Positions 3,745 to 13,117 of a DNA stretch of 64,000 nucleotides are shown one piece after another. The position numbers and the translations under genes were made by a program. The stretch is taken from NCBI GenBank assembly GCA_030059665.1, contig JANVYR010000001.1:224001-288000 (forward strand), in the 5' to 3' direction. Under the pieces are notes generated by a model. That model saw only the letters and a list, made by a program, of their open reading frames with translations. It did no database searches and was not told the origin of the DNA. The DNA comes from Candidatus Calditenuis fumarioli. GTDB lineage: Archaea > Thermoproteota > Nitrososphaeria_A > Caldarchaeales > Calditenuaceae. Position 1 is the first letter of the stretch; each line of letters starts with the position of its first letter.

Positions 3745-6402
3745 ATGGGACGCTACGTTTACCTGTTCGAGGAGGCGGTGGGCCTGACGAGGTTCGAGCT
3801 CGGCGGGAAGGGTTACGGCCTCGTGGAGATGACCTCTGTGGGCCTCCCGGTACCTCCGGGGATGGTGATAGTCACCGAGGCTTGCCGTGAGTACTACAGG
3901 AACGGCGGCAGGGTACCCCAGCAGGTCCTCGAGGAGGTCAGGCAGAAGCTCGAGCAGCTCAGCGCGAAGGTTGGTAGGCGTCTCGGAGACCCGGAGAGGC
4001 CGCTGATAGTCTCGGTCAGGTCAGGCGCCCCCTACTCGATGCCCGGCATGATGGACACCATCCTCAACGTGGGGCTGAACGACCGGGTGGTGGAGGCCCT
4101 CGCGGAGAGGACGGGCAACAGGAGGTTCGCATACGACGCCTACCGAAGGCTCCTCCAGATGTTCGGTCGCATCGTGATGGGCGTACCAGGTGAGAAGTTC
4201 GAGGAGGTGCTGAAGCGCTACAAGGAGAGGGAGGGCGTGAAGTACGACCACGAGCTCTCGGTCGATGCCCTCAGGTCCATCGTTGAGGAGTTCAAGCGCA
4301 TCATAAAGGAGCACACGGGTAAGGAGTTCCCGCAGGACCCATGGAAGCAGATCGAGATGGCAATAGAGGCGGTCTTCAGGTCCTGGAACAACCCGAGGGC
4401 CATCGAGTACAGGAGGTACTACAAGATCAGCGACGACCTGGGAACCGCGGTCAACATCCAGCTGATGGTCTTCGGTAACACTGGCCCCAACTCGGGCACC
4501 GGGGTCGGGTTTACGAGGGACCCGTCGACCGGGGAGAAGCGCCTCTACGGCGAGTACCTCCCCAACGCGCAGGGCGAGGACGTGGTCGCCGGCATCAGGA
4601 CGCCTCTCCCGATCGAGAAGGTCGACCCGGAGATCTACAGGCAGCTGAAGGAGACGGCCGAGAAGCTCGAGCGCCACTTCAGGGACATGCAGGACTTCGA
4701 GTTCACCGTCGAGGACGGCAAGCTGTACCTGCTTCAGACGAGGAACGGGAAGAGGACCGCACAGGCCGCCGTGAAGATCGCGGTCGACATGGTCAGGGAG
4801 GGGCTGATCACCGTCGAGGAGGCCCTGATGAGGGTCTCGCCATCTGACCTGAACCAGCTGCTCCACAGGCGCCTCGACCCGCGCGCCAAGGTGAACCCGA
4901 TCGCGAAGGGCCTTAACGCCTCCCCGGGCGTCGCCACCGGAAAAGTCGTCTTCCGCGTCGAGGAGGCCGTAGAGCTGGGCAAAGCAGGCGAGAAGGTGAT
5001 ACTCGTGAGACCTGAGACGACCCCTGACGACATCAAGGGGATCATCGCGGCCCAGGGGGTCCTCACCAGCAGGGGTGGGATGACCAGCCACGCGGCCGTC
5101 GTCACGAGGGGCATGGGGAAGCCGGCCGTCGTCGGTTGCGAGGAGATAACGATAGACCTCGAGAAGGAGCAGTTCGTAACGGCATCGGGCGTCGTGGTCA
5201 GGAAGGGCGACGTGATCACGATAGACGGCTCAACGGGTTACGTCATGCTCGGAGAGGTTCCAACGATCGAGCCCGAGATGACGGAGGAGCTGAAGACGCT
5301 CCTGAAGTGGGCCGATGAACGGAGGAGGCTCGGTGTAAGGGCCAACGCCGACACGCCGGAGGCCGCGAGGAAGGCCAGGGAGTTCGGAGCGGAGGGCATT
5401 GGGCTCTGCAGGACCGAGAGGATGTTCAACGCTCCCGACCGTCTGCCGATAGTGAGGGAGATGATCATGGCAGCCACCGAGGAGGAGAGGAGGGCCGCGC
5501 TGGAGAAGCTGTACCCGATGCAGCTGCAGGACTTCAAGGAGATCTTCAGGGCGATGAAAGGCCTGCCGGTCACCGTGAGGCTCCTGGACCTGCCGCTGCA
5601 CGAGTTCCTGCCGCCCGCGGAGGAGCTGATCAAGGAGATCTACGAGATGAGGCTCAGGGGCGCCAGCGAGCGTGAGATCGAGGAGAAGCTGAGGGTCCTC
5701 AGAAAGGTGGAGGCGCTGAGGGAGCACAACCCGATGATAGGGCACAGGGGCTGCAGGCTCGCGATAACGAACCCCGAAATCTACCGGATGCAGGTCAGGG
5801 CCATCCTGAGGGCTGCGATAGAGGTGCTCCGCGAGGACGGTGAGACGGCGGAGGTCCAGATAATGGTGCCGCAGACGGCCTTCGCTAAGGAGCTGGAGAT
5901 CATCAGGAAGCTTGTCGAGGAGACGGCCGAGGAGGTCTTCGCCGAGACCGGGACGAGGATCCCGTTCAAGTTCGGGACCATGATCGAGACGCCGAGGGCA
6001 GCACTTACCGCAGCCGAGATCGCGAAGGTAGCCGACTTCTTCTCCTTCGGCACCAACGACCTGACCCAGACGACCCTCGCCTTCAGCCGCGACGACGCGG
6101 AGTTCAAGTTCCTCCAGCCCTACCTCGAGAAGGGCATACTGAAGGAGAACCCGTTCGAGGTGCTCGACAGGGAGGGAGTTGGCAGGCTGGTCAGGATGGC
6201 CACCCAGGAGGGCAAGGCCGCCAACCCGAGGCTGGAGGTGGGAATCTGCGGAGAGCACGGCGGCGAGCCTAACAGCATCGCGTTCTTCCACGAGGCGGGC
6301 CTCGACTACGTCAGCTGCTCACCGTACAGGATCCCGATAGCGAGGCTCGCGGCCGCCCAGGCTGCGATTAGGGAGAAAGTGGAGGTCAGCGTGACGGTCT
6401 GA
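3745..6402 (+). CDS. ppdK: Pyruvate, phosphate dikinase
   Basis: LGGKG, VSVRSGA..SMPGMMDT, GGMTSHAAVV phospho-His motif, GLCRTE and GICGEHGG. Likely start is ATG 3745. Confidence 0.95.
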   Translation: MGRYVYLFEEAVGLTRFELGGKGYGLVEMTSVGLPVPPGMVIVTEACREYYRNGGRVPQQVLEEVRQKLEQLSAKVGRRLGDPERPLIVSVRSGAPYSMPGMMDTILNVGLNDRVVEALAERTGNRRFAYDAYRRLLQMFGRIVMGVPGEKFEEVLKRYKEREGVKYDHELSVDALRSIVEEFKRIIKEHTGKEFPQDPWKQIEMAIEAVFRSWNNPRAIEYRRYYKISDDLGTAVNIQLMVFGNTGPNSGTGVGFTRDPSTGEKRLYGEYLPNAQGEDVVAGIRTPLPIEKVDPEIYRQLKETAEKLERHFRDMQDFEFTVEDGKLYLLQTRNGKRTAQAAVKIAVDMVREGLITVEEALMRVSPSDLNQLLHRRLDPRAKVNPIAKGLNASPGVATGKVVFRVEEAVELGKAGEKVILVRPETTPDDIKGIIAAQGVLTSRGGMTSHAAVVTRGMGKPAVVGCEEITIDLEKEQFVTASGVVVRKGDVITIDGSTGYVMLGEVPTIEPEMTEELKTLLKWADERRRLGVRANADTPEAARKAREFGAEGIGLCRTERMFNAPDRLPIVREMIMAATEEERRAALEKLYPMQLQDFKEIFRAMKGLPVTVRLLDLPLHEFLPPAEELIKEIYEMRLRGASEREIEEKLRVLRKVEALREHNPMIGHRGCRLAITNPEIYRMQVRAILRAAIEVLREDGETAEVQIMVPQTAFAKELEIIRKLVEETAEEVFAETGTRIPFKFGTMIETPRAALTAAEIAKVADFFSFGTNDLTQTTLAFSRDDAEFKFLQPYLEKGILKENPFEVLDREGVGRLVRMATQEGKAANPRLEVGICGEHGGEPNSIAFFHEAGLDYVSCSPYRIPIARLAAAQAAIREKVEVSVTV

Positions 6403-6462
6403 GCTATCAGAAGTCTTCCACATCGTTGAACTCCAAAAACTTGGAACTACTGAGGGCGAGGG

Positions 6463-7485
<1,023 letters not shown>

Positions 7486-7618
7486 TTATTGAACCCACCC
7501 AGCACCGTGTCGTCCCAGATAAATCGGCTTCTCCGAGGGTGTGCCGGCTCTTAAGGCCCTGACCGTCAGCGGTACCGGTTAGGACGAGGAGATCCCTGCG
7601 TAACCCGGGGAGATTACC

Positions 7619-7825
7619 TCACCCATCCTGCTGCCGCGGTCCTGCATCAACAATATTCCTCGTGACCTCCCGAGCAACACCCAGGTCTTCGACATACGTC
7701 ACCACCCTGCTGTGCTTGACGGCGAAGTTGAACCTGCCCTCCAGCGCCTCCCTCAGGTTCCTGATCAGGACCCGCTCGTACCTCGACCTCTTGGAAGCCC
7801 AATCTAGGCTCGCGTTCGGTGCCAT
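7619..7825 (-). pseudogene. Possible remnant of a ThiI/THUMP N-terminus
   Basis: KRSRYERVLIRNLREAL...VKHSRVVTYV resembles the ThiI N-terminal segment by eye. The ORF is only 68 aa and sits at the island edge. Confidence 0.25.
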
Positions 7826-7894
7826 GAGAGAGTGACTTAATAGCAGTTAACGTAGGGAATCAGGTCGGAGAGAATGCGATGAGGTTGGTGCGAC

Positions 7895-7919
7895 AAAGAA
7901 AAGGGAAAAAGGGGAGGGG
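7895..7919 (-). terminator. Oligo-pyrimidine tract, candidate archaeal terminator for minus-strand transcript
   Basis: 25 uninterrupted purines on +, reading CCCCTCCCCTTTTTCCCTTTTCTTT on the minus strand. Confidence 0.35.
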
Positions 7920-7947
7920 TTGATCTCTTCTGCTATTTCTCTGTTCT

Positions 7948-8239
7948 CTGCGTAGTGCCTTGTGGCTTAATTCATCGGCTATTTCCGCTCTCTAGGCATT
8001 GCAGACGCGATTTTTAGGTGCAGTTCTCCGGTTGAAGAAGGGAGCTTTTACATGAACTTTTGGGAAGGTTTAAGAAGTGATTTGTCATGCGACGTAAGTC
8101 GTCATACCAGCTTTTATACTTTTCAGCAAAGCTTATATGAAATTTGGAGAAAGCGCAAATGACACCGTCAAAGTTTCCGGGAATTGAGGGTTCCAGAGGC
8201 GAAAGAGTTCGGAGAATTAAGCCACAAAGCACTGCGTAG
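7948..8239. repeat. 26-bp imperfect inverted repeat (7948-7973 / 8214-8239) enclosing an AT-rich segment
   Basis: Reverse complement of 7948-7973 is GAATTAAGCCACAAGGCACTACGCAG; 8214-8239 is GAATTAAGCCACAAAGCACTGCGTAG (23/26 identical). Confidence 0.85.
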
Positions 8240-8268
8240 TTATCCTCATCCTCGGTCGTTTGGGGCCC

Positions 8269-8387
8269 GGGCCGGTGCTATATAGCTCTAAGTACGCCTC
8301 ACCGCCTCACGGCGGGGGCGACTAATAACGTCGAAGCGCCCGTGCCCGGGTCTCCCCCGCCGAGGCGCTCGGTCCTATGTACGGCCC
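8269..8387 (-). ncRNA. Candidate structured RNA immediately downstream of the IS110-like gene
   Basis: Stem 8303-8318/8354-8367 (CGCCTC-ac-GGCGGGGG with CCCCCGCC-GAGGCG) closes two hairpins, 8319-8333 and 8339-8350. A possible outer helix pairs GGGCCG 8269-74 with CGGCCC 8382-87. Expression is not shown. Confidence 0.4.
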
Positions 8388-9650
8388 TAGGCCCATTTTC
8401 TCTTCCATTTATAGATCACCTCTACTGTTGTCTTCTGTTCCTCGACGAACGCTCTCTTCTCATCGGTGATTAAGTATCTCGGGTTAACCCCTAGCCTCCT
8501 TGCAGTCAACTGAACCAAGGAGTGCTTGGCAGCACCGTCATATATCAGACCTTCTCGATCCTTCTCGGGAACGAGTCCGAATTTCCTGTAGTTCTCGGTC
8601 AAGCTCCTGGTCTCATCAATCTCCATGAACACGTCGCAGGCGAACGCCTGTGTGACAACGTCTCCGTCATCGATGCCCAGATCCTTGAACATTTCGCAGA
8701 TCTTAGGATAGCAACTCTTGATGGTCTGAATGAAGTTCGTTGCCTCCATCATCAGATAGTCCTCAACCATCTCGATCCTCAACGACCTTTCGTCTTCTGA
8801 TACCGGCAGAGCATCGAGCTGTTGGAGCAGTCCCTGACGACTCCTTCTGGCATACCGATATAACAGCATGCTTACCCAACACCTCAGATGTTCCTTCGTC
8901 AATCTCCGCTGATACTTCGGCTTAACGTATCTCAGCAGAACCGCATCGTAGACGTCGTTCTTTATCTCCGTCTTGAACCCTTTTAGGACCTGTGGGTGGT
9001 GTCTTTCTAACCACTCCACGAGACCCTTTGGCTTCCCTTCGTGTTTTTTCCGCCAGCCGTGGAGGGCCGACGGTCTGGTCAGTACCCAGACCTCGACCCC
9101 GCTCTCGACGAGTTGCTTCAGAATCCCCACATTGCTCGGCCACAAAGCATCAACCAGAACCCTCTTGACGTCGTTGTCTTTTAGGAACTTCGGGAGCTCT
9201 CCGTTCTCGACTTGAGATATCAGCTCTTTCTCCGCTATGAAAACCATCGCCGGCCTCTTCTGATGGAAATCAACACATGCTCCGTCAAACCTCGGAAGCT
9301 CTGATATCTGCTCGAGTCTCCTGAACAGCTCAAGGGCTTTCTCCTTCAGCTTCCAATCGAGATGTTCTTGGTTTGCTTCTCCGATCATTCCTATCATCTC
9401 ATATCGCAATGCAGGTTCATAAGGAATGTGAGTTAGTGTCCAAGCTCCTGAAGGAGGTTTTGGTTCAGGAAGGGGAGACGCAGGCGATACCTGTCCTTGA
9501 GCAGTTGATGAAGTAGAGAGGTATAAGGGGTATGGCTTATCATAAGCAGTTCACTCTTGTGTCTTTGAATTCCAAAGCCGAGAGGATGGGAGAGGGAAGT
9601 AAGGGCCCTCTGGGAGGGGGAACTTTACGAGCTTCACGCTTATAGCTCTA
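8281..9650 (-). mobile_element. Candidate IS110-like element bounded by TATAGCTCTA direct repeats
   Basis: Identical 10-mer at 8281-8290 and 9641-9650 brackets the DEDD gene (1360-bp spacing). The region is visibly lower in GC than its flanks. Confidence 0.45.
8387..9409 (-). CDS. IS110-family-like DEDD (RuvC-fold) recombinase/nuclease, divergent
   Basis: Acidic tetrad D47 (ACVDF), D87 (VLVDA) and D152/D155 (KNDVYDA, the IS110 KxDxxDA motif), then a helical linker and a GLVP segment lacking the PxxxxSG serine. Confidence 0.65.
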   Translation of the reverse strand: MRYEMIGMIGEANQEHLDWKLKEKALELFRRLEQISELPRFDGACVDFHQKRPAMVFIAEKELISQVENGELPKFLKDNDVKRVLVDALWPSNVGILKQLVESGVEVWVLTRPSALHGWRKKHEGKPKGLVEWLERHHPQVLKGFKTEIKNDVYDAVLLRYVKPKYQRRLTKEHLRCWVSMLLYRYARRSRQGLLQQLDALPVSEDERSLRIEMVEDYLMMEATNFIQTIKSCYPKICEMFKDLGIDDGDVVTQAFACDVFMEIDETRSLTENYRKFGLVPEKDREGLIYDGAAKHSLVQLTARRLGVNPRYLITDEKRAFVEEQKTTVEVIYKWKRKWA

Positions 9651-9735
9651 TGCTGTCAGAACGGTTTCGGGAACCCTGCCCACTACCGTCGTGAGACGGC
9701 TCACCTTTTTTGAGCACGCAGGAACCGCCTTAACC

Positions 9736-10143
9736 GTGAACCCGATCAGGGCTGTGCTGCCGGTCGTCTCGATCGTGGTGATGAACTCGATCGGAAGCTA
9801 CGTCTCGGCCAGGGGTGCGGGTCTCGCTTGCCCAGACTGGCCACTATGCCCGTTCCCCGGAGACGAGCTGGTGCTGCTGGAGTTCACGCACAGGGCCTTC
9901 GCGATTGTGGTGCTCCTCGCGGTCGTTGCGGTCACGGTCCCATCGATCCGTTACGGCGGGGTCGCCCGAAAGCTGGCCGTCCTCGCGTTAGCTCTGTTGC
10001 TGGTCCAGATAGGCCTGGGAGGTGCGGTGGTGCTGACTGCGCTTAGGGCTGAGCTGGTTGCCTTGCACATGGCCGTTGCGAGCTCCGTCCTCGCTGCGTA
10101 CTCGATGCTAGCCGCGGTGCTGCTCTGGCGGGTGGAGAGATGA
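9736..10143 (+). CDS. ctaA: Half-size heme A synthase (COX15/CtaA family)
   Basis: GAGLACPDWPLC, EFTHR and LHM motifs; four TM helices. Likely start is GTG 9736. Confidence 0.8.
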   Translation: MNPIRAVLPVVSIVVMNSIGSYVSARGAGLACPDWPLCPFPGDELVLLEFTHRAFAIVVLLAVVAVTVPSIRYGGVARKLAVLALALLLVQIGLGGAVVLTALRAELVALHMAVASSVLAAYSMLAAVLLWRVER

Positions 10144-10784
10144 CCGTAGCGATCCTCGGTGGGACCGCTGGCCTGGGAAGGGCCCTCGCGATCAGGCTCG
10201 CCTCAAGCGGCGTCCGCGTCGTAATCGGCTCGAGGTCCGAGGAGAAAGCGAGAGAGGTTGCGAAGGAGGTCTCACGGCTGACCGGCTCCGCTCACGTCGA
10301 GGGCAGGAGGAACGAGGACGCGATCGAGGGCGCCGAGTTCGTGGTCTTCGCTGTGCCGTATCCCGGGATGTACGAGGTGGCCAAGGCGGTTCGCACGAAA
10401 CTCGGTGAAGGATCGGTGATCGTCTCAGCGATCGTCCCGCTCGAGTCCGACCTGGGAGGGCCAGCGAGGTACATAGAGCCTTCCGCAGGTTCCGCGGCCG
10501 AGGCGCTCCAGGAGCAGCTGAGGGGTTTCCCCGTCGTCTCGGCCTTCCACTACACGCCAGCCTCGCTCCTCGAGGACCTGAGCGCCGAATTGGACGTCGT
10601 CGTCTGCGGAGAGAGGGAGCCCGCATACCGGCTGATCGAGCTGCTCAGGGGCGTCAGGGGCATCAGGCCCCTTTACGGAGGTCCGCTGAGGAACTCCAGG
10701 GTGACGGAGAGGTTGGTCCAGCTCCTGATCGAGATCAACCGGGAGCACAAGACGAAAGCCGCCACCTTACGGTTCGCCTTCTGA
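10140..10784 (+). CDS. npdG: NADPH-dependent F420 reductase
   Basis: ILGGTAGLGRALA, IGSRS, SAAE and GGPL motifs. Confidence 0.85.
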   Translation: MTVAILGGTAGLGRALAIRLASSGVRVVIGSRSEEKAREVAKEVSRLTGSAHVEGRRNEDAIEGAEFVVFAVPYPGMYEVAKAVRTKLGEGSVIVSAIVPLESDLGGPARYIEPSAGSAAEALQEQLRGFPVVSAFHYTPASLLEDLSAELDVVVCGEREPAYRLIELLRGVRGIRPLYGGPLRNSRVTERLVQLLIEINREHKTKAATLRFAF

Positions 10785-10822
10785 GGTACAAGATTATAGA
10801 GCACGTCGAGTTAACCCATCGC

Positions 10823-12175
10823 GTGGATCCGGCGATATTCAGGGCGTACGACGTCAGGGGCGTTTACCCGAGACAGGTTAACGGCGAGGTGGCCTACGCG
10901 CTGGGCCTCGCCTTCGGCAGGATGGTAGGCGGCGGCAAGGTTCTGGTGGGGCGGGACGTCCGGCTGAGCGGTCCCGAGCTGGCCAGGTATCTGTCGCTTG
11001 GGCTGGAGGACGCGGGACTCCGGGTCTTCGATGCTGGTGTGGTGCCGACGCCGGCGCTGTACTTGGGCGTCGTCGAGGGCGGGTTCGACGGAGGCGTCCA
11101 GGTCACCGCATCGCACAACCCTCCCGACTGGAACGGGTTCAAGTTCGTCACCGGAACGGGTGAGACGATCTCTCAGGGGATGGGGATGGAGGAGCTGAGG
11201 GATGCGGCGATGTCGCTGGCGAACGTCCGGGTGCCGTCGAGGGATCCGGGCACCGAGAGGGTCGACGTCCTCGGTCGCTATCTAGAGCGGCTCAAGTCTC
11301 TGGTCAGACTCAGAAGGAAACTGAAGGTCGCTGTGGACTTCTCCAACGGCGCCGGAGCCGTCGTCGGCGCGCGGTTGCTGCGGGAGATCGGTGTGGAGCT
11401 TCACCCCCTGAACGACGTCCCCGATGGCAGGTTCCCAGCGCACCTTCCGGAGCCTACGCCCGAGACCGCGGAGGAGCTGAGGAAGACTGTGCGGGAGCAG
11501 GGACTGGACCTCGGTGCAGCTCTCGACGGCGACGCTGACAGGGCCGTCTTCTGCGACGACAGAGGGAGGCTCTTGGAGGGCGACCTCTCGCTGGCGGTTC
11601 TCGTCTCAGCGCTCGGCGTCAGGGGCAAGGTGGTTTACGACGTGAGCTGCAGCTCTGTGGTCGAGGAGGTCATCAGGTCGAAGGGCTGTGAACCCGTCCT
11701 CTGCAGGGTCGGGCGTGCGTTCATGCTAAGGAAGGTGAGGGAGGTGGGTGCTGTGATCGGCGCGGAGAAGAGCAACCACCTGTACTTCTCCGAGATCCAC
11801 GGGTTCGACGACGGCCTGTTCGCCGTTGCCAAGATGGCCGAGGCCGTGAGCGGCATGGAGAGACCCCTCTCGGAGTTCATCGACTCGCTGCCGAAGCGCT
11901 ACGCGTCAACCATATTCTCCGTGAATTTACCGAACGACGAGGTCAAGTGGAAGGCGATGGAGGTCATCGCGAGGAAACTCTCCTCGATAGCGAAGGAGAC
12001 GCTGACGATAGATGGGGTCAAGGCCTATCTCGACGACGGCTGGGTCCTGATCAGGCCGTCAAACACCATGCCCCAGATCAAGTACACCGCAGAGTCCGTG
12101 ACGGAGGAGGGGTTGAGGAGGCTCCTCGCCATCGCGGAGAAGACGATAGCCGAGAGCGTCTCCCAGTTGAGGTGA
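10823..12175 (+). CDS. Phosphomannomutase/phosphoglucomutase
   Basis: FRAYDVRG, TASHNP phospho-Ser motif, DGDADR and RPSNT. Confidence 0.93.
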   Translation: MDPAIFRAYDVRGVYPRQVNGEVAYALGLAFGRMVGGGKVLVGRDVRLSGPELARYLSLGLEDAGLRVFDAGVVPTPALYLGVVEGGFDGGVQVTASHNPPDWNGFKFVTGTGETISQGMGMEELRDAAMSLANVRVPSRDPGTERVDVLGRYLERLKSLVRLRRKLKVAVDFSNGAGAVVGARLLREIGVELHPLNDVPDGRFPAHLPEPTPETAEELRKTVREQGLDLGAALDGDADRAVFCDDRGRLLEGDLSLAVLVSALGVRGKVVYDVSCSSVVEEVIRSKGCEPVLCRVGRAFMLRKVREVGAVIGAEKSNHLYFSEIHGFDDGLFAVAKMAEAVSGMERPLSEFIDSLPKRYASTIFSVNLPNDEVKWKAMEVIARKLSSIAKETLTIDGVKAYLDDGWVLIRPSNTMPQIKYTAESVTEEGLRRLLAIAEKTIAESVSQLR

Positions 12176-12194
12176 GCTGCCGAGGGCAGAGCGG

Positions 12195-12974
12195 CTACGT
12201 GCCCCTTGTGACCCTCTCGGTCCTTGCCCTGTACCCCATCGAGTCGAGCGTGGCAAGCAGCTCGTCAACCGTCACGCTGACCGGAATCCTCGCGATGGCC
12301 CTTCCCTCGCGGTAGGAGACGGAGAGAGCGGTCCCTCCGAGCGATTCGATCGCGGACCTCACGGCCTGCTCGCAACCCTCGCACGTCATCCCATCCACAG
12401 CCAGCTCTATCGTTAACATCGGTTGCTTGAGCTGCTCCGCGACCGACCTCACGGCCCTTTCCGCGGACGTACCCCTCGCCATCTGTAGGTATTTGTCGAC
12501 TACGAGCCCGAGGTACTCCCTGCAGCACTTCCCAGATGGATTAGTTGTGAGGCACCATTTCCCAGTACCTGCCTTCGTGAAGGCCACGATGTCCTCCAAT
12601 GAGTCGCAGCACCCCTTCTCGATTATCTCTCGTTCTATCATCTCCTCCGTTACTTGGAGACAATAGCATATTGGTCTCGGAGGCTGTCTCTCCTTCAACC
12701 CGAACCTCGTCTTCACCTCGTCCTTCAGGAAGTATGTTTTGCTGACGTTGTTGAAATAGAACATCTCGCATTGTGGATTGCTGCAGAAGTAAAACCCCTC
12801 AGTGAGGTGCGACCAGAACTTCTCCGGAACGTGTGTGGCAACGGTGACCTTCAGGACCCTAAGCCCCCGCTCACCGCAAACAGGACAGACCCTCTGGTCC
12901 TTCTCGGACTCCTCTCTGATGTGGATCTGCCTGCCGGTGACGGTGAGGTGCCTTTTCCGCTCCACCGCGCTCAT
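12195..12974 (-). CDS. CopZ-like copper chaperone: Zn/[2Fe-2S] N-domain plus HMA domain
   Basis: CPVC, YFCSNPQC, PICYC, KGCC and NPSGKCC, then MTCEGC. True start is ATG 12974; the 5' extension in the ORF track belongs to the YHS gene region. Confidence 0.8.
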   Translation of the reverse strand: MSAVERKRHLTVTGRQIHIREESEKDQRVCPVCGERGLRVLKVTVATHVPEKFWSHLTEGFYFCSNPQCEMFYFNNVSKTYFLKDEVKTRFGLKERQPPRPICYCLQVTEEMIEREIIEKGCCDSLEDIVAFTKAGTGKWCLTTNPSGKCCREYLGLVVDKYLQMARGTSAERAVRSVAEQLKQPMLTIELAVDGMTCEGCEQAVRSAIESLGGTALSVSYREGRAIARIPVSVTVDELLATLDSMGYRARTERVTRGT

Positions 12975-13117
12975 CGCGATGCGTACTTGGCAGGGTTTGC
13001 CTTGAACTGGTCGAGGCATTGCTGGCGGCAGAAGTAGTAGGTTTTGCCGCCGTACTCGTACGTGTACTTCGCCGTCTTCTCGTTGACCTCCATCCCGCAA
13101 ACCGGATCCTTCGCCAT
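12971..13117 (-). CDS. YHS-domain protein (48 aa)
   Basis: Hand translation MAKDPVCGMEVNEKTAKYTYEYGGKTYYFCRQQCLDQFKANPAKYASR. Its stop overlaps the CopZ start (ATGA). Confidence 0.9.
   Translation of the reverse strand: MAKDPVCGMEVNEKTAKYTYEYGGKTYYFCRQQCLDQFKANPAKYASR

Follow-up and report, generated by a model that had tools for sequence, protein, structure and literature searches.

To our knowledge, IS110 is so far the sole mobile member of its protein superfamily whose RNA logic is known. Elements of the IS110/IS1111 type, such as IS621 and ISCro4, encode a protein with a RuvC-like DEDD domain, a coiled coil and a helical RNA-binding domain, as well as an RNA encoded in cis, which in IS1111 lies 3' of the gene; they have no inverted ends, and their insertion is site-specific. 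In IS110, an internal loop bears guides on its 5' and 3' sides; these base-pair with opposite target strands and share the central dinucleotide of the target. TasR of the TIGR systems is an endonuclease that works as a dimer and has two 9-nt spacers, one for either strand of a single site; these spacers are swappable, and each directs a RuvC cut, which results in a staggered break (PMC12045711). TIGR arrays have been described, and their natural targets are unknown (PMC12045711). A survey of the superfamily reported no further families (10.1101/2024.06.21.599552), and another survey chose loci by the IS110 Pfam architecture, which the protein family described here escapes (10.64898/2026.10.21.760802). 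We found no description of this family in the literature searched.

We analyzed a window (the whole stretch of 64,000 nucleotides of Candidatus Calditenuis fumarioli DNA) containing a low-GC intergenic island, which encodes a 340-aa protein and, directly 3' of its gene, a structured RNA of ~120 nt (Table 1). The listed open reading frame begins with TTG; the ATG at 9397 is the likelier start, since the ESM Atlas record of this protein begins at residue 5. An earlier note on this DNA had described an intact acidic tetrad with a KxDxxDA signature, and both are present in the protein as D47, D87, D152 and D155 and the motif KNDVYDA. In an alignment of homologs reaching down to ~30% identity, K150, D152 and D155 are invariant, and D47 and D87 are conserved in every homolog that spans them. 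The note had further observed that the C-terminus departs from the GLxPxxxxSG sequence carrying the IS110 serine, and this holds for the family as a whole. In ~45 aligned homologs GLxP is followed by a loop of variable length with no conserved Ser, Thr or Tyr, and none of them has the loop serine, so the serine-less loop is a trait of the lineage and not a sign of decay. Five canonical archaeal IS110 proteins, fetched for comparison, do carry GLxPxxxxSG; an hhalign comparison of the family profile with these five gave no meaningful alignment, and therefore no residue-level equivalence to the IS110 serine can be derived.

The profile searches that the earlier note had proposed gave a divided result. 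PF02371 (Transposase_20) and PF01798 (Nop) match neither the 340-aa protein nor any of 38 family members, and PF02371 has no match in the genome of the window either; PF01548 (DEDD_Tnp_IS110) likewise does not match the protein itself, and gives a weak match in two of the 38 members (E 0.0024, below the cut-off). No Pfam or NCBIfam model matches the protein even at E values up to 10, and no PDB chain was matched when searched by sequence and by profile. A PCNA-like identity considered for small accessory ORFs was dropped, as those ORFs have no Pfam match.

A model of the 340-aa protein was built with AlphaFold from 38 sequences and is confident (pLDDT 88.2, pTM 0.83). Its N-terminal part is predicted to form an RNase H/RuvC-type sheet (strands 44-47, 54-58, 63-67, 83-86 and 106-110), in which the acidic residues lie where beta1 (44-47) and beta4 (83-86) end and where the helix 152-159 begins, and this predicted placement of all four is the RNase H/RuvC pattern. 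The helical linker described in the note corresponds in the model to two long antiparallel helices (172-200 and 205-233), and the C-terminal domain is all-helical, with no beta strand anywhere after residue 170. Among PDB structures searched with Foldseek, only ISCro4, IS621 and TIGR-TasR were matched at E ~1e-4; the next match was above 0.01, and Nop5 chains appeared only at E above 0.03 with a TM of ~0.13. A structural alignment with VIA, which is independent of Foldseek, placed TasR (9mty_B) first (Z 14.7, rmsd 3.4, 247 residues), ISCro4 second (Z 13.1) and TasH (21kl_A) third (Z 12.7, on residues 172-340). As modelled, the protein thus combines a RuvC fold with a coiled coil and a Nop/Tnp-like helical domain, and the assignment to an atypical lineage with IS110 and TasR likeness agrees with these significant matches, all of which are to TasR, IS621/ISCro4 or TasH. 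The RuvC and Nop-type architecture of TasR, with no serine recombinase site, is recovered at the level of the fold only. None of the three outcomes that the note had named as speaking against its reading was encountered: the model has a RuvC fold, the loop has no serine, and the homologs do not keep the SG loop.

A homodimer was also predicted, with a score of 0.66 compared to 0.01 for the best of three controls, a mark that is reached by 20 of 30 proteins solved as one-chain pairs and by 1 of 23 solved as single chains; since similar complexes have already been solved, this score may reflect likeness only. The homodimer runs have at least 96% of contacts in common, the partner pLDDT is at least 83, and the predicted interface is the coiled coil at residues 179-218.

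The earlier note had suggested a cis-encoded RNA without a visible TIGR array, and the RNA was found just 3' of the gene. In many homologs the predicted C-terminal tail of the protein is a read-through of a conserved DNA element that begins right after the stop codon. Six copies of this element in the same genome, one of which lies behind a 287-aa paralog, consist of conserved blocks and two variable windows of 10-15 nt (V1 and V2), both of which differ wholly between the six. Their consensus fold is a long outer stem around an internal loop; a GC-rich hairpin caps this loop, which holds V1 on its 5' side and V2 on its 3' side. Relatives from other genera have the same layout with a different sequence; in nine of them compensatory changes occur at 7 of 18 pairs, and the observed covariation score was reached by none of 500 shuffles. 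Of the two strands, only that of the gene accommodates the invariant G-U pairs. In the RNA class of the other genera AUGAC precedes and GA follows each guide, an arrangement resembling that of box C/D RNAs, whereas the class-1 RNA of the window has no clear C/D boxes.

RNA and gene occur one to one. A covariance model applied to the complete genome G012 identified eight RNAs, one directly behind the 3' end of each of its eight gene matches, and in G011 it identified four, all paired with a gene; at each locus examined there is exactly one RNA unit per gene. Tandem Repeats Finder detected no array in positions 5000-13000, and Rfam gave no match to the RNA. A second, donor-binding loop or a segment of the RNA matching the element ends was looked for and not found. 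Reads of one metatranscriptome run fell only on a nested MITE and on a part of the gene shared with paralogs, and are uninformative on expression of the RNA.

The variable windows of the RNA match the two flanks of the element on opposite strands. We scored matches as being in the right geometry when they had the same sense as DNA upstream of the gene or were antisense to DNA downstream of the RNA, and used the mirror geometry, which has an equal search space, for comparison. For 26 loci with hand-curated guides, exact matches of at least 9 nt numbered 27 in the right geometry and 1 in the mirror geometry, and those of at least 10 nt numbered 12 and 1, respectively. An independent set of 16 loci, the guides of which were extracted automatically from the model alignment, gave 9 against 0, and pooling both sets (42 related loci) gave 36 against 1 for exact matches of at least 9 nt. 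At many loci the match is perfect over 9-14 nt, and the geometry fits even for a metagenomic member with 35% protein identity. The upstream guide can be either V1 or V2, and since both arrangements describe the same duplex, the element can be placed in either orientation relative to its site.

Unoccupied sites were available for three insertions of the 287-aa family in G012, a genome of a sister genus. All three are missing from G013, where their flanks are contiguous, and at each empty site the two guide matches share 2 nt, precisely where the element is inserted. The empty sites read CTAACCT-AA-ATAAGCTG (L024), TCACGAT-TT-ATACCGT (L039) and CAGGGTT-AA-ATAATGC (L032), with 3, 6 and 4 bp, respectively, duplicated around the center upon insertion. 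An opposite-strand guide pair of the IS110 type, overlapping at the insertion dinucleotide, is therefore present in this family. The guides match target DNA and not the ends of the element, since a host stop codon forms part of the host side at one junction; the targets abut host start or stop codons. The element ends themselves are ragged and are not conserved among copies that are 87-96% identical, and a search for inverted ends or terminal inverted repeats found none. The copies L032 and L039 are 96% identical, yet they differ at 7 of 18 guide positions, and such young copies occupy different sites with different guides.

For the copy in the window, the guide matches coincide with the two edges of the intergenic low-GC island. 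The note had called this region a lower-GC island, and the GC content is indeed 0.50-0.52 over positions 8001-9500 compared to 0.62-0.66 in the flanks. The left target half lies 41 nt from the start of a host gene at 9691, and the right target half 17 nt before the start of a 2-oxoacid oxidoreductase beta gene. By analogy with the three insertions described above, the unoccupied site of this copy would read TAGAGCT-ATA-ACGTCGA, and the duplex expected as the target of its RNP is TAGAGCTATAACGTCGA. No intact target was found in its own genome at up to two mismatches. An empty site was not found in genomes of the same genus, where the flanks fall on separate contigs and the intergenic sequence has diverged too far; metagenome contigs scanned with a gapped pattern gave nothing, and contigs of three hot-spring metagenomes carry only occupied junctions at this site. 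An empty site for copy L005 was sought and not found, the family-1 copy L011 in G012 has no clean empty site (its flanks are on different contigs in relatives), and none was found for any family-1 copy. The case for insertion of the window's copy consequently consists of the two 10-nt matches at its edges and the analogy.

Table 1. Features of the putative element and its flanking target halves; positions are those of the window.
Feature	Position	Strand	Basis
Right target half, host DNA, gene strand ATAACGTCGA, complementary to V1	7472..7481	-	Guide-flank match
Whole inserted element (putative extent), ~2.16 kb, filling the low-GC intergenic island	7482..9640	-	Two guide matches, GC profile, analogy with three insertions having empty sites
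CCCCTCCCC and T-rich tract, after the RNA in all copies	7894..7921	-	Alignment of copies
Nested MITE, 276 bp (7956-8231), with 8-bp duplication	7948..8239	.	Absent from copy L005
Structured guide RNA unit: outer stem, V1, hairpin, V2, outer stem	8248..8371	-	Consensus fold; covariation in relatives; one-to-one with gene
Guide V2 TAGAGCTATA, identical to 9641-9650	8281..8290	-	Guide-flank match
GC-rich conserved hairpin with GNRA-type GUGA loop, between both guides	8295..8320	-	Consensus fold
Guide V1 TCGACGTTAT, complementary to gene-strand 7472-7481	8325..8334	-	Guide-flank match
Gene for RuvC, coiled-coil and Nop/Tnp-like protein without the IS110 serine, 340 aa	8387..9409	-	ORF list, alignments, model
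5' leader	9410..9640	-	Alignment of the genome's copies
Left target half, host DNA, gene strand TAGAGCTATA, identical to guide V2	9641..9650	-	Guide-flank match

The remaining parts of the element were delimited by comparing the copies of this genome. The proximal ~100 nt of the 5' leader (9410-9510) are conserved among them and preceded by a TATA-like TTATA, and the alignment shows no variable windows in the leader. The conserved CCCCTCCCC with its T-rich tract is likely an archaeal terminator. The nested MITE has 18-nt inverted ends and an 8-bp duplication, CTACGCAG. We also considered whether the 10-mer shared by 9641-9650 and 8281-8290 marks the two ends of the element, and rejected this, as one occurrence is the guide in the RNA and the other is host flank.

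Relatives detectable by sequence are few and limited to Caldiarchaeum and Nitrososphaerota metagenome bins. The Atlas suggests archaeal clusters of 956, 57 and 269 members and, after these, viral clusters whose IS110 Pfam labels are partial, and a search for related loci in public genome contigs and viral contigs confirmed no relative. The 1.57-Mb genome of the window contains five intact copies of the gene (100, 86, 86, 68 and 61% identity), one frameshifted copy and one remnant, as well as the shorter paralogous family of 287 aa. Among 76 genomes belonging to the class, presence of the gene is patchy. Canonical IS110 (PF02371) is absent from these and is found in other genomes of the phylum.

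Compared with the described systems, this locus shares with IS110/IS1111 the features listed at the outset: the three-part protein, the RNA encoded in cis and 3' of the gene as in IS1111, internal-loop guides that pair with opposite target strands and overlap centrally, the lack of inverted ends and site-specific insertion. Unlike IS110, it has neither the catalytic serine nor the hairpin bearing it; PF02371 does not match, and PF01548 matches no more than weakly, in two of 38 family members; its RNA has one loop and no donor-binding guides, where the IS110 bridge RNA has a target loop and a donor loop; and its ends are unconserved, with a duplication of 3-6 bp, insertion in either orientation and a target of its own for every copy. 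TIGR-TasR (PDB 9MTY; PMC12045711), the best structural match, has in common with it a RuvC domain with the acidic residues, the absence of the serine, a coiled-coil dimer (predicted here) and two interchangeable guides of ~9-10 nt directed to opposite strands of one short site. It differs from TIGR-TasR in having, instead of an array, one guide unit in an extended stem-loop at the 3' end of the gene; in the overlap of its guides by 2-3 nt, where TIGR guides abut; and in that the system would itself be a mobile element, the natural target of which is its own insertion site. The likeness to archaeal box C/D sRNPs extends to the three-part architecture and dimer of Nop5 and to the RNA layout of terminal stem, guide, internal stem, guide and terminal stem. 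The RuvC-like domain of Nop5, however, is an inactive one that recruits fibrillarin, whereas the protein described here retains the acidic tetrad; the Pfam Nop model does not match, and the targets are flanking DNA and not rRNA. The OMEGA nucleases TnpB and IscB (IS200/IS605) and homing endonuclease genes would have the same lifestyle as proposed here, in which recognition of the element-free site leads to retention or homing, and TnpB also takes its guide RNA from the 3' end of its gene. The fold is nevertheless unrelated to those of TnpB, IscB and LAGLIDADG proteins, and, in contrast to those systems, there is no partner transposase, the two guides address two strands, and no TAM is involved. 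The best reading is that the element stands between IS110 and TIGR-Tas, sharing with them the fold and the opposite-strand tandem guides, and having neither the serine domain and the two-loop RNA of the one nor the array of the other.

We propose, with a probability of roughly 55%, that this is a mobile RNA-guided RuvC nuclease of the homing type, which uses one tandem-guide RNA to target its own unoccupied insertion site. The element would be a selfish, mobile unit of ~2.2 kb (7482-9640) with two working parts, one being a RuvC-type DNA endonuclease that acts as a dimer and resembles TIGR-TasR and IS110 proteins in its build but has no IS110 serine nucleophile, and the other a single guide RNA, presumably expressed as the 3' end of the gene's own transcript and processed from it. 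Within its one internal loop this RNA would carry two guides of ~10 nt for a 16-17-bp site, one pairing with the bottom strand in its left half and the other with the top strand in its right half, and at the center of the site they would overlap by 2-3 nt. The RNP would then cut the empty site with a short stagger around this center, and host repair would copy the element in from an occupied allele (homing); at new sites the element may instead be joined in by end-joining or microhomology. An occupied site would be immune, since insertion splits it. The explanation builds on what is observed here, that is, the fold, the acidic residues, the missing serine, the RNA structure, the guide-flank matches, the empty sites and insertion at the overlap. 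A homing-type element is favored because the fold is that of TasR, the acidic residues are kept, the IS110 nucleophile is absent and the RNA specifies the target only. End-joining at new sites fits the ragged ends, the short variable duplications and the random orientation, and the interchangeable spacers of TasR fit the two orientations in which the elements are inserted.

The main alternative, which we regard as possible and hold only tentatively, is a serine-free RNA-guided transposase or recombinase, the RuvC sites of which would excise the element and transfer strands at the central dinucleotide, with the single-loop RNA acting as half of a bridge RNA that aligns the target halves or the flanks of the resident element. 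The 2-nt guide overlap lies precisely where insertion occurs, as that of IS110 guides lies at the core, and each insertion compared with its empty site is flanked by a duplication of 3-6 bp that contains the overlap; both facts recall the IS110 core and could mean strand exchange and not break repair. The fold match to ISCro4 and IS621, nearly as strong as that to TasR, and the weak PF01548 match in two of 38 members (E 0.0024) also speak for such an enzyme, as does the survival of both half-sites at the junctions, by which one RNP could synapse the ends of the element. Against it, the place of the IS110 nucleophile has neither a conserved Ser, Thr or Tyr nor a beta hairpin, and the RNA has neither a second, donor-binding loop nor a segment matching the element ends. 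These ends are ragged, without inverted repeats and unconserved even in copies 87-96% identical, the duplication is not constant in length (3, 4 or 6 bp), and either orientation occurs relative to the same guide-defined site. Simple homing, on the other hand, does not account for the joint appearance of new guides and new sites, and the 96%-identical copies with differing, flank-matching guides are as yet explained by neither homing nor the recombinase model; gene conversion of the coding part and a process of guide renewal are both possibilities. A serine-free "half-bridge", in which one RuvC dimer with a single-loop RNA excises and inserts the element and the guides are re-specified for every new site, would explain the unrelated, flank-matching guides of such copies, though we consider it doubtful.

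The abutment of targets to host start and stop codons, the resemblance of the relatives' RNA to a box C/D unit with guides between AUGAC and GA, and the existence of solo-Nop TasA proteins that are not nucleases (PMC12045711) would also fit a non-cutting RNA-guided module for DNA binding or regulation, or a Nop5-like RNA-modification factor, recruited by the host for the neighboring genes. This is improbable, given that the four acidic residues are all conserved across a wide family, the gene is multicopy with decayed copies, sister species differ in whether they have it and show clean empty sites, the GC content of the island is low and, after insertion, the intact target is gone. It is very improbable that the locus is a decaying IS110 relic with no current activity, the guide-flank matches being historical leftovers, even though no Pfam model matches the protein, one copy is frameshifted and another reduced to a remnant, and a MITE lies inside the window's copy. 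The whole family, down to ~30% identity, has the serine-less form along with intact reading frames and conserved catalytic residues; many loci show perfect guide-flank matches of 9-14 nt; young copies of 96% identity are found at different sites with different guides; and the RNA hairpin shows compensatory changes.

A mobile homing-type nuclease of this kind would give the TasR-like type of nuclease a natural target and a testable lifestyle, with empty sites at hand for comparison. It would also be a compact system from a hot-spring organism, consisting of ~340 aa and ~120 nt and needing no PAM. The archaeal element mixes traits of IS110 (an RNA stem-loop in cis with overlapping guides) with those of TasR (no serine, symmetric guides) and with a box C/D-like RNA layout, and is directly relevant to the evolutionary link that has been proposed for IS110, TIGR-Tas and Nop5. 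If the half-bridge mechanism were true, the element would be a living intermediate of IS110 recombinases, TIGR-Tas nucleases and box C/D RNPs, and one that acquires or rewrites its guides.

Two copies of the shorter 287-aa paralogous family in the complete genome of the sister genus (L032 and L039 in G012) are 96% identical over 1.6 kb; nevertheless, both of their guides and the central hairpin of the RNA differ, and the differences within the hairpin include compensatory changes. The RNA module seems either to undergo exchange or to be evolving much faster than the gene. Elsewhere, several copies have one guide that is near-identical letter for letter and a second guide that is different (L013, L100 and L101 in genome G028; L102 and L108; L112 and L113). 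Since one guide is common to such copies while the other is not, some lineages may insert beside a repeated sequence.

The 287-aa family is abundant in G012, G028 and one further genome (G033), and its 3' RNA is the same as that behind the window gene. Its motif, KSDIKA, is without the fourth acidic residue, and either S or N occupies the position of D291. In copy L013 the end of the coding region (L013:2193-2206) could base-pair with the first box of the RNA and with the outer stem on its 5' side, and complementarity of this kind, spanning 9-14 nt, recurs at equivalent places in L017, L018, L032 and L039. Such alternative pairing could act as a gate on RNA processing.

Additional features of the window's element, together with a 287-aa family member, are listed in the table. 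One of the leader ORFs is a 37-aa remnant (MAYHKQF...) of a protein that is full-length, at 152 aa, in copy L002; the other, of 47 aa, is conserved and lies antisense to the start of the gene. Neither has a match in Pfam. Across the genome there are 13 occurrences of the nested MITE's ends, many of them shortly behind the terminator tract of other element copies.

Coordinates of additional features
Feature	Location	Strand	Basis or identity
Two small ORFs in leader, divergently oriented	window 9532-9645 and 9373-9516	+	
68-aa ORF in tail	window 7619-7825	-	
Tail segment	window 7658-7792		99% to contig 2 550339-550473
Tail segment	window 7489-7662		83% to contig 2 54828-55002
MITE, 276 bp, nested in 3' tail	window 7948-8239		18-nt inverted ends (TGCYTTGTGGCTTAATTC); 8-bp duplication CTACGCAG
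287-aa family member	L040:1438-2301 (G000 contig 1, ~324.9-325.8 kb)	-	

The two flanks of L011, a G012 copy belonging to the window gene's own family, are found on different contigs in the related genomes G011 and G013, and its left junction falls within a tRNA-like sequence. This locus may have undergone a rearrangement mediated by copies of the element.
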